64,000 nucleotides of DNA. Origin: Lytechinus pictus. Its lineage: Eukaryota. The stretch lies in contig NC_087250.1 in assembly GCF_037042905.1 (NCBI RefSeq), positions 13,952,001 to 14,016,000 on the forward strand, written 5' to 3'. The translations under genes were made by a program, and so were the position numbers. Below the pieces are notes generated by a model, which saw only the letters and a program-made list of their open reading frames with translations, was not told where the DNA came from and did no database searches. Positions 5,620 to 49,401 of this stretch are shown piece by piece. The stretch's first letter is position 1. Every line of letters starts with the position of its first letter.

Positions 5620-6699
5620 TCACATACCTAGGGCGTCTCCCGTTGTATGGATTTGTTTATTATGTCTCGTGAGAATACTGTATTGAGTAGATGCCTTATC
5701 ACAATAACGACATACGTACGGTTTTTCCCCTGTATGGATATGCTTATGTCTAGTGAGATGGTTTGGTCGAGTAAATGCTTTACTACATTGATCACATACA
5801 TAGGGCTTCTCACCGGTATGAATCCGTTCATGTTCTGTGAGATGATGTTCTGATTTAAATGCCTTATCGCATTGGTCACACACATAAGGTTTCTCAACTG
5901 TATGGATTCGTTTATGTACTATGAGACTCTGTTTTTTATTAAATGCCTTACCACATTGATCACATACATAAGGTTTCTCACCTGTATAGATTAGTTTATG
6001 TGTTGTGAGACTATGTCTTTGATTGAATGCCTTACCACATTGATCACACACATACTGTCTCTCACTTGTATGGATTTGTTTATGTATCGCGACACTATCA
6101 ATTTGATTAAATGCCTTACCACATTGATCGCATACATAAGGTTTCTCACCTGTATGGATTCGTTTGTGTCTTTTGAGGTCACTAGCTTGAATAAATGCCT
6201 TACCACATTGATCACATACATACTGTACAGTTTCTCACTCGTATGGATTCGTTTATGTGCTGTTAGACCATAAGATCTGGTAAATGCCCTTCCACACCTA
6301 TCACATACATAGGGCTTCTTACCGGTATGGAATTATTTATGTCTAGTGAGAGGGTTTAATCGAGTAAATGCTTTACTACATTGATCACATACATAGGGCT
6401 TCTCACCAGTATGGATCCGTTTATGTTCTGTAAGATGATGTTCTGATTTAAATGCCTTATCGCATTGATCGCATACATAAGGTTTCTCAACTGTATGGAT
6501 TCGATTATGTCTTATGAGACTCTGTTTTTATTGAATGCCTTACCACACTGATTACATACATAAGGTTTCTCACCTGTATGGATTCGTTTATGTCTTATGA
6601 GACTGTTTTTTATTAAATCCCTTACCACATTGATCACATACATAAGGTTTCTCCCCTGTATGGATTCGTTTATGTTGTACACGAGTAAATAATGATTAA
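5620..6699 (-). pseudogene. Detached, frameshifted 3' part (~13 fingers) of the gene A zinc-finger array
   Basis: 84-bp C2H2 units ending TTGDALGM* as in gene B. Indels near 6680 (-1), 6603 (-2) and 6221 (+5). Lies downstream of the transposon-supplied stop. Confidence 0.85.
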
Positions 6700-8428
6700 C
6701 CCTATCCAGGCCGGGGGGGGGGGGGGGTAGGCCTCAGAGGCCCCCCGGCCCCCCTCAACGATTCGTGCAATATTTTTGCTGTGCAAATTTTTTTGACCGG
6801 GCCGCTCGCTGGCTTTTTACTTTTAAGTCTTGTGCAGCGTTTGAGACAAGTTTTGTGTCACCCGGGTACGTGTTCCAAAATTATGCAACATTATGTAAGT
6901 GCATCAGTGCATGTCAGACCAAAAATTGCACAAAAACGTGATTTCGTTTACAAAGTAAATGCAAATTCTGTCTTCAACCAAATATCATGAATGTCTGATT
7001 ATTTTAGTTTTGCTGGTATAAATGTATTTATATAATGCCGTTTATGATCTCAGAAGAGTCCCCAACAAATTTAATTGAAAAAACAATGAAAAACAAAAGG
7101 TCCAACAAACATAGAAATACATAAGAAATTGCAAAAAACAACAAGTGGAATGCCTCTGGCCGTCTCACCTGCATCACGCGATTCAATATAGCAGCAGTGC
7201 TGATTTTGAAAACTACTATAACTCGCACAAGATGTTCAGTGATACTTGGTTACTCTTATTTCCACGTTTTATGAACTAGACCAATACACTTATAGAGATA
7301 TGATGGCAATTCAACAAATACCCCCAACGTGGCCAAAGTTCTTTGACCTTACATGACCTTTGACCTTGATCATGGGACCTGAAACTCGCACAGGATGTTC
7401 AGTGATACTTGATTACTATTATGTCCAAGTTTTATGAACTAGACCAACACACTTTCAAATTTATGGCTGTAATTCAACAAATACCCCAATTTGGCCAAAG
7501 TTCATTGACCCTAAATGACCTTTGACCTTGATCATGTGACCTGAAACTTGCACAGGATGTTCAGTAATACTTGATTACTATTATGTTTAAGTTTCATGAA
7601 TCAGATCCATAAACTTTCAAAGTTATGATGGTAATTCAACAGATACCCCCAATTCGGCCAAAGTTCATTGACCCTAAATGACCTTTGACCTTGGTCATGT
7701 GATGTGAAACTCATGCAGGATGTTCAGTGATACTTGATTAACCTTATGTATAAGTTTCATGAACTAGGTCCATATATTTTCTAAGTTATGATGACATTTC
7801 AAAAACTTAACCTTAGGTTAAGATTTTGATGTTGATTCCCCCAACATGGTCTAAGTTCATTGACCCTAAATGACCTTTGACCTTGGTCATGTGACATGAA
7901 ACTCAGGCAGGATGTTCAGTAATACTTGATTAACCTTATGGCCAAGTTTCATGAACTAGGTCCATATACTTTCTAAGTTATGCTGTCATTTCAAAAACTT
8001 AACCTTAGGTTAAGATTTGGTGTTGACGCCGCCGCCGCCGCCGTCGGAAAAGCGGCGCCTATAGTCTCACTCTGCTATGCAGGTGAGACAATAAAATGCA
8101 TAAGAAATTGATCTCATATCGCAATTTTTTTTCATGTACACTTGCTAGGAACACCAAAGAGTTTTTAAACCAAAATTTGGAACAAATGGAGCTTTATGTA
8201 GGGAGTTAGAGGGAAAAGTATGATTTTGCATACTAATTAACGCATGAATTAGCATAATCGCTTAAAACCAATTTGCATGAAATAAATTATTATACAGTTT
8301 TGTAGATTATGTCCAAGACAACCTGCATGCCAATTTTCTGCGCGATCGCGCGGCCAACGGCCGAGATCTCCCAGGCCCCCCCCCCCACTGGCCATAGGAA
8401 CTCCCAAAATACCCCAGCCTAGATAGGG
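6700..8428. mobile_element. piggyBac-like non-autonomous element interrupting the gene A array
   Basis: TTAA-ccctatccaggccggg ... cccagcctagataggg-TTAA (TTAA at 6696-6699 and 8429-8432). Its end supplies the stop FNPI*. Confidence 0.88.
7140..8094 (+). mobile_element. Helentron/HINE-like element nested in the piggyBac-like element
   Basis: Starts AACAAG; subterminal inverted repeat gtctcacctgcat / atgcaggtgagac; internal ~165-190-bp tandem units with tgacctttgacc; (gcc)n tract; 3' hairpin. Confidence 0.75.
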
Positions 8429-47313: not shown

Positions 47314-47897
47314 AGGAGAATGAAACCCTTGAAACCAGCTGAATCCATATCAAAGAGAAAAATCAAAGAAACATATTGTTGAAAGTTTGAGGAAGATTGA
47401 ATGAATAATAAGAAAGTTATGAGCATTTGAATATTGAGATCACTAGTGCCATGTAGATCCTCCCATCGGCAATGCGACCAAGATCTGTGATATCACACAC
47501 GTACAACTCCCTCCTTACTTTAGTACTTATTTCACTTATATTCTCACTTTTACTAGAGTCTATCACAAGGTGAGGTGTTCTCTTTATGAGATGACGAGTA
47601 CAGAGGTTTCACAACATTATATCATTGATGAATCGTTTGTCATATGATTAGAATGAGCAAAAAGAGATGTTTTGGGGTATATTTTCAGTGTCCAAATGGG
47701 AGAGTTGTACGTGTGTGACATCACAGATCTTGGTCGCATTGCCAATGGGAGGATCTCCATATCATTAGTGATCTCGACATTCAAATACTCATAACTCTTT
47801 TATTGCTAGTCCTATTTTACTCAAACTTTTGTTGATCTTATTCTTTGATTTTTCTGCTTTCACAAAAGCTAACTTGCTCCAAGAGTTTCATTCTCCT
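47314..47897. mobile_element. TTAA-flanked Kolobok-like MITE interrupting the gene B array
   Basis: TTAA-aggagaatgaaac ... gtttcattctcct-TTAA; internal inverted repeats; supplies the stop FKGE*. Confidence 0.9.
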
Positions 47898-49401
47898 TTA
47901 AATGCTTCACCACATTGATCACATACATAGGGTTTCTCACCTGTATGGATTCGTTTATGTCTTATGAGACTCTGTTTTTTATTAAATGCCTTACCACATT
48001 GATCACATACATAAGGTTTCTCACCTGTATGGATTCGTTTATGTGCTGTGAGATTAGATTGTCGAGCATATGCCTTACCACATTGATCACATACATAAAG
48101 ATTTTCACCTGTATGGATAAGTTTATGTGCTGTTAGATCATAAGATCTCGTAAATGCCCTTCCACATGGATCACATACATAGGGCTTGTCACCTATATGG
48201 ATATGCTCATGACTTCTGAGATTCCATTTGTATCTAAATGCCCTATCACATTGATCACACACATAGGGCTTCTCAACGGTATGGATTAGTTTATGTCTTG
48301 TGAGACCATTAGATTTACTAAATGCTTTACTACATTTATCACATACAAAGGGCTTTTCCCCTGTATGGATCCGTTTATGTTCTATGAGATGATGTTCTAA
48401 TTTAAATCCCTTACCACATTGATCGCATACATAAGGTTTCTCAACTGCATGGATTTGTTTATGTCTAGTGAGATTATGTTCTAATTTAAACACCTTACCA
48501 CATTGATCACATACATACGGTTTCTCACCAGTATGGATTCGTTTATGTATAGTGAGAGCGTTTAATCGAGTAAATGCCTTGCCACATTGATCACACACAC
48601 AGGGCTTCTCACCGGTATGGATTCGTTTATGTCTCGTGAGATCACCAGATTGACTAAATGCTTTACTACATTTATCACATACAAAGGGCTTTTCACCTGT
48701 ATGGATCCGTTTATGTTCTATGAGATGATGTTCTAATTTAAATCCCTTACCACATTGATCGCATACATAGGGCCTTTCACCGGTATGGATTAGTTTATGT
48801 CTTGTGAGATCATAAGATAGACTTAATCCCTTACCACATTGATCGCATACATAGGGCCTTTCACCGGTATGGATTTGTTTATGTCTAGTGAGATGATGTT
48901 CTAATTTAAATGCCTCACCGCATTGATCACATGCATACAGTTTCTCACCTGTATGGATTCGTTTATGTCTTATGAGACTCTGTTTTTTATTAAATGCTTC
49001 ACCACATTGATCACATACATAGGGTTTCTCACCTGTATGGATTCGTTTATGTCTTATGAGACTCTGTTTTTTATTAAATGCCTTACCACATTGATCACAT
49101 ACAGAGGGCTTCTCATCATTAATTACTTCATGGCATGATGCAAAATATGAATCTATACTTGACTTACACTCAAGTATCATATTTACTTCACTTCCTTCTT
49201 TTAAAATCCCCATTTCACCAAGTTCAAAGTCATTAGATTTACAGGGAGGTCTTTGTATTTCTCCATCAACAAACTGTAGAATGCCCTCCTGCGACCGCAT
49301 GTAGATACCATGTATTCCATGTTTGTCCTTGAGATGCCTTGCTAAGATGAGAGGAATAGCATAGAATGATCCACAGTACTCACATCGGTAGATCCCAGAA
49401 T
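47888..49401 (-). CDS. Gene B last coding exon: isolated finger plus 14 tandem C2H2 fingers, truncated
   Basis: Acceptor ctttccaatAG|ATTCT; in frame with the 470-aa ORF; paralogous to the gene A exon. Confidence 0.85.

Follow-up and report, generated by a model that had tools for sequence, protein, structure and literature searches.

Why do two neighbouring zinc-finger genes of a sea urchin each carry a different DNA transposon at the same codon of a finger? The window analysed here, 64,000 nt of the Lytechinus pictus assembly GCF_037042905.1 (NC_087250.1, positions 13,952,001–14,016,000, forward strand), contains two tandem neighbouring paralogues, termed gene A and gene B, each of which has an array of C2H2 fingers built from 84-bp units (Table 1). 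A preliminary description of this DNA had proposed that a TTAA recurring in the units makes the arrays a built-in landing strip for TTAA-specific transposons, and that the resulting truncations could retune or disable putative repressors of such elements. The two insertions themselves stand, while the retuning interpretation mostly fails.

As read from their sequence, both hosts are zinc-finger genes of the aKRAB type, derived from PRDM9 and without SET. An aKRAB, a post-SET finger and a tandem array are present in both, which is the PRDM9-type architecture minus SET. The aKRAB, linker exon, post-SET finger and CDQC-type array of echinoid PRDM9-like proteins (P0004, P0011, P0012) and of SET-less proteins (P0003, P0009, P0010, P0013) align to A and B, but gene A has 59 array units compared to about 6–12 fingers in these models. 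Unlike P0004, neither gene contains a match to residues 224–431, the PR/SET region: tblastn of P0004 against the window returned nothing for these residues at E <1, and hidden SET exons were rejected on the same result. The KRAB domains score 19.3 bits (E 0.0009) in gene A and 16.0 bits (E 0.009) in gene B, both below the Pfam gathering cut-off of 20.4; they are of the ancestral PRDM9 type, and their repressor role is putative.

Neither gene is plainly dead, since a comparison of exons 1–3 of the two genes reveals purifying selection (pN/pS 0.30, p 0.008) and the proximal arrays of both are open. The possibility that A and B are two haplotypes of one gene was rejected because exons 2–3 are about 90% alike, with pS 0.15, and the arrays differ. 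Intron 4, which is 99.1% identical between them, reads as the product of recent conversion. Joined, the exons of gene A encode 1643 aa with 44 C2H2 motifs and those of gene B 807 aa with 15, and removal of the inserted MITE from the last exon of gene B gives 31. RefSeq isoform P0001 of gene A is without any array finger, and no annotated full-array form of either gene was found among proteins of 276–879 aa or 621–2000 aa, a weak negative because models can be missing. Gene B carries further damage: a LINE with endonuclease, RT and zf-RVT matches lies at its ATG, and the exon 3 donor has changed from GT to GG. Skipping of exon 3 or use of a donor at +4 would lead to a stop at residue 86 or 114, while a weak upstream donor would preserve the frame.

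Table 1. Features of the two genes and of the elements in and around them (positions in the window).
Feature	Position	Strand	Basis or remark
Gene A aKRAB-A exon (from ATG)	22412..22556	-	Pfam KRAB; identical to P0001
Gene A exon 2 (aKRAB-B-like, acidic)	21323..21421	-	AG/GT ends; matches P0001 and PRDM9-like P0004
Gene A exon 3	20516..20595	-	AG/GT ends; matches P0001
Gene A exon 4, repeat-rich linker common to PRDM9-like proteins	13725..14142	-	sequence match
Gene A last coding exon, with a finger of post-SET type, a spacer and 46 finger units in one open frame	8419..12608	-	new stop 8419-8421 inside element A
Element A, non-autonomous piggyBac-like DNA transposon, finger 47 of gene A	6700..8428, 1729 bp	.	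TSDs + TIR
HINE/Helentron-like element nested in element A	7140..8092	-	features compared with PMC4067079
Gene A distal tail, with the remainder of finger 47 plus 12 more units	5620..6699	-	natural stop 5620-5622
5-bp insertion in unit A52, giving TA-CAG-TA	6224..6228	-	A52 otherwise identical to A42
Non-TTAA inverted-repeat element, PIF/Harbinger-like, Myb/SANT remnant	4838..5451	+	TIR 27/30; PF13873 E 4.8e-8
Gene B aKRAB-A exon (from ATG)	57707..57857	-	Pfam KRAB
Gene B exon 2	53382..53480	-	AG/GT ends
Gene B exon 3	53095..53174	-	donor GG vs GT in gene A
Gene B exon 4	50524..51103	-	sequence match
Gene B last coding exon, with a finger of post-SET type, a spacer and 14 intact fingers	47888..49401	-	new stop 47888-47890 inside MITE
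Element B, Kolobok/T2-type MITE, finger 15 of gene B	47314..47897, 584 bp	.	TSDs + TIR
Gene B distal fingers severed by MITE	45986..47313	-	frame intact to natural stop 45986-45988
Perfect 13-finger tandem duplication in gene B, 1092-bp period	46273..49103	-	1151 nt without mismatch
Second related Kolobok-type MITE, non-finger TTAA, 107 bp past gene B natural stop	45283..45878	.	TTAA both sides; TIR 13/17
Broken LINE, ~3.9 kb, antisense to gene B, ~10 bp upstream of ATG	57868..61799 (ends approximate)	+	gene A exon matches both flanks

The element in gene A is flanked by a TTAA duplication at 6696–6699 and 8429–8432, and its TIRs, matched at 15/17 positions, start with CCCTAT. This start agrees with the piggyBac short-TIR rule (C[CAT][CAT]) and with the first-six-base motif reported for piggyBac-like non-autonomous PBLE derivatives (PMC5381638), with which element A also has the TTAA duplication in common. 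TTAA duplications serve to call non-autonomous piggyBac elements in the available portion of PMC4971623. The longest open frame, 96 codons, leaves no transposase, so that element A is considered non-autonomous and its placement with piggyBac is by its ends alone; no second copy was found within the window. Compared to the PBLE derivatives (PMC5381638), it is without transposase and carries a nested HINE-like element, after whose removal about 776 bp are left. The nested insert has 13-bp subterminal inverted repeats, a GGC microsatellite, 163/192-bp central repeats and T-rich flanks without TSD, all of which are features of HINE/Helentron elements in the accessible text of PMC4067079.

The element in gene B duplicates TTAA at 47310–47313 and 47898–47901. 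Its TIRs start with AGGAG at both ends and match at 16/17 positions, and its 161-nt subterminal arms are 81% alike. The definition of T2-MITEs, as given in the part of PMC6004289 used here, includes an RR/AGGRR terminus, and element B has this terminus together with the TTAA target, small size and long subterminal inverted arms common to T2-MITEs and non-autonomous Kolobok elements. The T2-MITEs in that part of the source are from Xenopus, whereas element B is from a sea urchin and no partner transposase was seen in the window. Its sole relative noted in the window is the second MITE, whose arms are 70–77% alike to its own. Ends and TTAA duplications thus bear out the preliminary description of a piggyBac-like element in gene A and a Kolobok-like MITE in gene B.

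No sequence common to the two elements was found, and the fingers that they hit are non-orthologous, the nearest units to A47 differing from it by 11 substitutions. This supports two separate insertions, as had been claimed; a single ancestral insertion copied with the gene was rejected on the same grounds. In both genes, the frame runs into the element and stops at the fourth codon after Phe (...AFNPI* in A and ...AFKGE* in B), which agrees with the early stops originally described. Because these stops are in the last coding exons, escape from NMD is plausible. Precise splicing-out of the elements is unlikely, judging from ends that are CCC..GGG and AGG..CCT rather than GT..AG.

The identical position requires no special explanation. 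Each element is inserted at offset 22 within the 84-bp unit, where Phe TTT and the following AAT form TTAA, and in the unit consensus TTAA occurs only at the Phe codon when an Asn or Lys codon follows. Within array A, 27/31 TTAA are at this Phe offset, and within array B 14/19 (41/50 in total); the product of the two fractions, 0.64, is the joint probability of the shared position, which is therefore no more than would be expected by chance. It was correctly noted that the site recurs across the array, since it is found in 41/89 units. At the scale of the window, however, the supposed landing strip shows no excess of TTAA, with 6.68/kb in the arrays compared to 7.42/kb in the rest (p 0.56). 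Pairs of TTAA with at least 14/17 TIR matches number 8 in the window, several of them nested pairs of one palindromic element, versus 0–1 per shuffle in 30 shuffles. Two hits among 50 array sites, compared to one complete TTAA element among about 400 other sites, give a one-sided p of 0.034 in a test on a single window picked after the fact for this pattern. With 2–6 background elements, the same test gives p 0.06–0.22, and unpaired termini are present in the window.

What the insertions removed differs between the two genes. In gene A, the tail beyond the element contains indels of -1, -2, -1 and +5 (unit lengths 83, 82, 83 and 89) and one in-frame stop. There are thus five disabling lesions in 1075 bp of tail versus none in 3861 bp of proximal array (p 0.0005), and a 483-bp stretch at the start of this tail accounts for all five (p 0.018). 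With element A removed, the frame gives the same 44 fingers before ending. The insertion in A52 is possibly an excision footprint of Tc1/mariner type, for which a motif is given in the available part of 10.1101/659086, or a palindromic template switch. The Harbinger-like element, with a 3-bp CTG duplication, lies amid degenerate finger remnants beyond the natural stop. The dead zone of gene A holds elements with other target rules, namely the nested HINE-like insert, the CTG-duplicating element and the possible TA footprint.

Insertion of the MITE reduced gene B from 31 fingers to 15, about half. The MITE is present in the second copy of the 13-finger duplication only, and gene B itself also contains the matching empty site: units B2 and B15 are identical (0 differences). 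Because of this location, only 3/16 lost helices are unique, and the others are kept in the proximal part. The last three fingers are lost, and this may matter because they have counterparts at the end of gene A (A57–59 versus B28–30). The proposal that insertion shortens the finger set without a frameshift consequently applies to gene B but not to gene A, where the tail is frameshifted and the count is 44 fingers with or without the element.

We estimate a probability of roughly 0.7 that the two insertions arose independently and were tolerated in array ends that are either redundant or dead. Tolerated damage rather than tuning is suggested because the Phe spot holds most array TTAA and because the severed fingers had either decayed beforehand or are mainly duplicates. 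Two non-autonomous DNA transposons, unrelated to each other and both TTAA-specific, would have inserted independently into the arrays of two tandem paralogues, coming to a common position because the Phe and Asn/Lys codons form the only TTAA of the unit consensus, and would persist because their cost is low. In gene A, the element borders a tail that other lesions have inactivated, in whatever order these events occurred; the MITE of gene B lies in a fresh duplicate of retained fingers in a gene otherwise damaged, where its cost is presumably low. Unequal exchange and conversion among the 84-bp units may be what determines array length in this family, and the transposons would then be passengers in weakly selected array ends. 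The nominal p of 0.034, the purifying selection, the open proximal arrays and the loss of the last three fingers of gene B weigh against tolerated damage.

The first three of these points are shared with other explanations. A selection filter, with both genes mattering, insertions arriving in the arrays at an ordinary rate and survival limited to those that spare needed fingers, is an unlikely explanation, but the open proximal arrays and the pN/pS value would fit it. In gene B, the MITE could have trimmed a fresh duplication to a near-old finger set, or a null allele with the MITE in finger 2 could have been rescued by unequal exchange that placed 13 intact fingers ahead of it. The MITE in the second unit of the duplicate with an empty twin in the first copy is consistent with this, and 59 nt of extra identity at the duplication junction fits unequal exchange. 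However, 10/19 sites in B and 7/31 in A are at or beyond the hit positions (product ~0.12), so late hits are not improbable; the LINE and the broken donor argue against full function of gene B; and 0 differences in 1151 nt would place both copies in one very recent haplotype. The same identity could instead arise if the assembly had merged an empty and a MITE-bearing haplotype in gene B, with some of the indels in the tail of gene A being consensus errors. One deletion there is in an A run and another in an AG repeat, and the clustering of lesions at the start of the tail also points this way. A partial artefact is nevertheless quite improbable: the proximal array of gene A has many identical A runs and no frameshift, the tail also has a substitution stop and the 5-bp insertion, and the elements, TSDs and nested insert are not error-like.

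There is likewise very little probability that the Phe-codon TTAA makes the arrays a preferred target and that truncation, favoured by host or transposon selection, retunes or disables TE repressors. Two superfamilies did hit adjacent paralogues, at the nominal p given above; the stops are in last coding exons; element B supplies a coding-strand AATAAA (47804) located 84 nt beyond its stop; and the predicted motifs of sea-urchin ZNFs show enrichment on TEs taken as a class in the accessible portion of PMC10547256. Set against this, TTAA is not in excess and the position is forced by the repeat, gene A loses no in-frame finger, and gene B loses mostly duplicates. Human PRDM9 aKRAB shows no repression and no TRIM28 binding in the part of PMC8835667 used here. 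Moreover, because a repressor would act in trans, it is hard to see what the inserting copy in particular would gain. The junction signature, a broken-finger ending in F-N-P or F-K-G, is absent from 12 echinoid array-bearing homologues, two of them isoforms of one gene, and from 119 and 147 other homologues returned by two array searches. This survey covers gene models, in which repeat-masked ends may have been avoided, and no more than 12 of the proteins are echinoid; the others are a weak control because they are mainly generic long arrays, with 0/147 new proteins of the second search family-like. A literature search by title and abstract, mostly among openly available papers, turned up no account of transposons at this Phe codon in finger arrays.

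The closest parallels are found in vertebrates. Young KRAB-ZFP clusters such as mouse Chr4 accumulate TEs (PMC12575710; PMC13709654, available portions) and have in common with this locus tandem paralogues, unstable or truncated arrays and many TE insertions. The mouse cluster, in the same portions, involves ERVs enriched by segmental duplication, whereas A and B have DNA transposons in the coding array, an ancestral-type KRAB and a putative repressor role. Primate PRDM7 (PMC2082429) is a PRDM9 duplicate with a shortened or removed array and finger-less isoforms, comparable to P0001 of gene A. However, PRDM7 keeps PR/SET, and its fingers were lost by deletion and an 89-nt duplication rather than by a transposon.

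This locus illustrates in detail the decay of a tandem finger array. It also warns that, where units of 84 bp are repeated, a "same codon" coincidence follows from the repeat itself. It is very doubtful, but conceivable, that in the sea-urchin PRDM9-derived aKRAB family array-length alleles arise repeatedly through TTAA transposons. Each Phe-Asn/Lys finger would then be a cut point giving a clean C-terminal truncation, the element would supply a polyadenylation signal, and selection would keep trims of duplicated fingers, as in gene B, or removal of fingers that possibly bind the element's own family. If this were true, transposons would feed mutations directly into the range of binding specificities of an invertebrate KRAB-like family, and such events could be counted in any genome by the F-N-P/F-K-G junction signature.

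The finger arrays of the neighbouring paralogous C2H2 zinc-finger genes A and B have each been struck independently by an insertion, in both cases at the TTAA most frequent in the 84-bp unit. Both insertions produce early stops, and the fingers beyond them are redundant or broken. In the window, TTAA pairs with matched inverted ends occur beyond chance, with 8 pairs matching at ≥14/17 positions (several of them nested pairs from one palindromic element) compared to 0–1 per shuffle in 30 shuffles. The ends of element A, in finger 47 of gene A, agree with the piggyBac-like definition in PMC5381638, and those of element B, in finger 15 of gene B, with the T2/Kolobok MITE definition in PMC6004289. 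Neither contains a transposase, the longest frame in element A being 96 codons.

Coordinates of the features in genes A and B and their surroundings
Feature	Position	Details
Gene A, minus strand	22412-8419	aKRAB, linker, post-SET finger, and array, without PR/SET
Gene B, minus strand	57857-47888	same layout
Element A	6700-8428	TTAA both flanks; inverted ends begin CCCTAT, 15/17 matched
Element B	47314-47897	TTAA both flanks; ends begin AGGAG, 16/17 matched
New stop, gene A	8419-8421	...AFNPI*
New stop, gene B	47888-47890	...AFKGE*
GT donor, last coding exon	~12381 (A), ~49165 (B)	
Intron 4	12609-13724 (A), 49402-50523 (B)	99.1% identical
Common palindromic MITE	12735-13050, 49533-49848	316 bp
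Units A52-54 and A42-44	6049-6305, 8623-8874	
Gene A intron 2	20810-20880	second copy of exon 2 3′ half, including donor
Gene A intron 3	16200-19974	1.65-kb block with LTR-type RT/RNase H fragment, ~2.3 tandem copies, 98.5% identical
Opposed 15-bp tandem arrays	40885-41057, 42387-42570	~1.4 kb apart; probably arms of one foldback-type element
Stretch 5′ of gene B LINE	61809-62197	400 bp; 79% inverted copy between genes (35203-35601); only 33 bp match gene A first exon; either promoter remnant or repeat
Long inverted repeats	57147-57688, 62423-63145	87% and 97%; flank gene B KRAB exon and LINE; either two opposed repeat copies or one large element

Both insertions lie at offset 22 of the unit, where the Phe codon TTT is followed by AAT, and the new stops precede the old ones by 2.8 kb (A) and 1.9 kb (B). 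The two events are independent, because the elements have no common sequence and the fingers struck differ. The preliminary description, which had placed unrelated TTAA-flanked elements at these coordinates and proposed independent cuts at this codon pair and early stops, is borne out on each of these points. In mammals, stops in the last exon escape NMD, and under that rule it is plausible that the new stops would do so as well. Element B carries AATAAA 84 nt beyond its new stop.

With the elements removed, the arrays comprise 59 units (A) and 30 units (B) with 50 TTAA sites. Because 41 of these sites are at offset 22 (27/31 in A, 14/19 in B), the sole TTAA in the unit consensus, the coinciding position is unsurprising; two insertions would share it with a probability of 0.64. 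The striking part of the earlier claim is accounted for by the repeat itself, and the proposal that the array is a built-in landing strip is unsupported, as TTAA density is 6.68/kb in the arrays compared to 7.42/kb in the remaining 54 kb (p 0.56). Preferential targeting of the arrays is possible but unproven. Insertions per site, at 2/50 in the arrays versus one complete TTAA element elsewhere, give a one-sided p of 0.034 in a window picked for this pattern, and 0.06–0.22 if the background is 2–6 elements; the window also contains unpaired piggyBac-type and Kolobok-type ends. Outside the arrays, the only complete TTAA element found is the related MITE that occupies an ordinary TTAA 107 bp beyond the natural stop of gene B.

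The consequences differ between the genes. In gene A, the proximal 46 units (3861 bp) form one open frame with zero stops and zero frameshifts, while the 1075-bp tail has indels of -1, -2, -1, and +5 and one nonsense codon (p 0.0005). The struck finger is missing its first Cys, and in an element-free gene A the frame runs on for only two more units and yields an unchanged count of 44 C2H2 motifs, which means that element A costs no finger in frame today. In gene B, the MITE reduces the motifs from 31 to 15 and the distal frame remains intact. The expectation that the finger set would be shortened without a frameshift thus holds for B but not for A. As read from a single sequence, element A may have caused the tail decay or landed in a decayed tail.

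The gene A tail zone holds further insertions obeying other target rules. Among finger remnants past the natural stop lies an element that duplicates CTG and retains a Myb remnant, presumably Harbinger-like. A HINE-like element, its features compared with PMC4067079, is nested inside element A. A 5-bp insertion reading TA-CAG-TA agrees with the Tc1/mariner footprint in 10.1101/659086; being palindromic with its flank, it could instead be a template switch. Save for this insertion, the distal units A52-54 match the proximal units A42-44 exactly, an identity that points to very recent duplication or conversion within the array. Helices absent proximally occur in 7/10 full-length distal units.

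In the gene B array, 13 units are duplicated in tandem and the copies agree over 1151 bases without a mismatch (divergence <0.26% at 95%). The MITE occupies unit 2 of the later copy, and only 3/16 lost helices are without an upstream counterpart. A broken antisense LINE of 3.9 kb lies ~10 bp 5′ of the ATG, and the exon-3 donor is GG compared to GT in gene A. Exon-3 skipping or use of the nearest downstream donor gives an early stop, and a weak upstream donor preserves the frame. The A–B pN/pS (exons 1–3, 0.30 with p 0.008; exon 4, 0.44 with p 0.055) speaks against gene B being dead, as a sequence record of past constraint. The identity of intron 4 and the spacer (98.6%), compared to ~90% in exons 2–3, probably reflects recent gene conversion; the high-identity stretch includes the common MITE.

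Read from the ATG through its five coding exons, gene A encodes 1643 aa, the first 322 matching exactly the RefSeq isoform X2 of Lytechinus pictus LOC129263773 (P0001, starting at its residue 33). Since P0001 ends at the ~12381 donor without array fingers, at least one annotated gene A transcript omits the array. The relatives of A and B are echinoid PRDM9-like proteins, in PR/SET-bearing and SET-less forms. Both genes match one of these, P0004, at the aKRAB, linker, and post-SET finger, with no match to its residues 224–431; they are sea-urchin offshoots of PRDM9 whose layout is KRAB-ZFP-like. In the SET-less Lytechinus relatives P0009 and P0010, a PHD finger is found at the PR/SET place, and one model, P0008, fuses a THAP domain to the aKRAB.

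The insertions would be tolerated since the fingers beyond them are redundant or broken, with array length set by unequal exchange between units, an explanation that as a whole has a probability of about 0.7. Filtering of insertions by selection in functional genes is unlikely. The perfect gene B duplicate could also come from haplotypes merged during assembly; a partial artefact is improbable.

Adaptive or TE-driven retuning is just as improbable. Predicted sea-urchin ZNF motifs are enriched on TEs as a class, and the authors call for direct validation (PMC10547256). The repressor role of A and B is only hypothetical, because those motifs are predicted and their enrichment is class-level, the KRAB matches of A and B are below the Pfam cut-off, and human PRDM9 aKRAB shows no TRIM28 binding and no repression (PMC8835667). 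A TTAA insertion at this codon is expected to break the last finger so that it reads F-N-P for piggyBac ends or F-K-G for Kolobok ends. This signature occurs in 0/12 echinoid array-bearing homologues, 0/119 other homologues, and 0/147 unnamed long arrays, a weak test because gene models and mostly unrelated arrays were sampled.

None of the papers listed in the literature searches concerns this exact case. The case does have parallels: TE-rich, unstable young mouse KZFP clusters behave like A and B (PMC12575710; PMC13709654), and the finger loss of PRDM7 is reminiscent of them (PMC2082429). The insertions are real, and they are fresh instances of an already known phenomenon.
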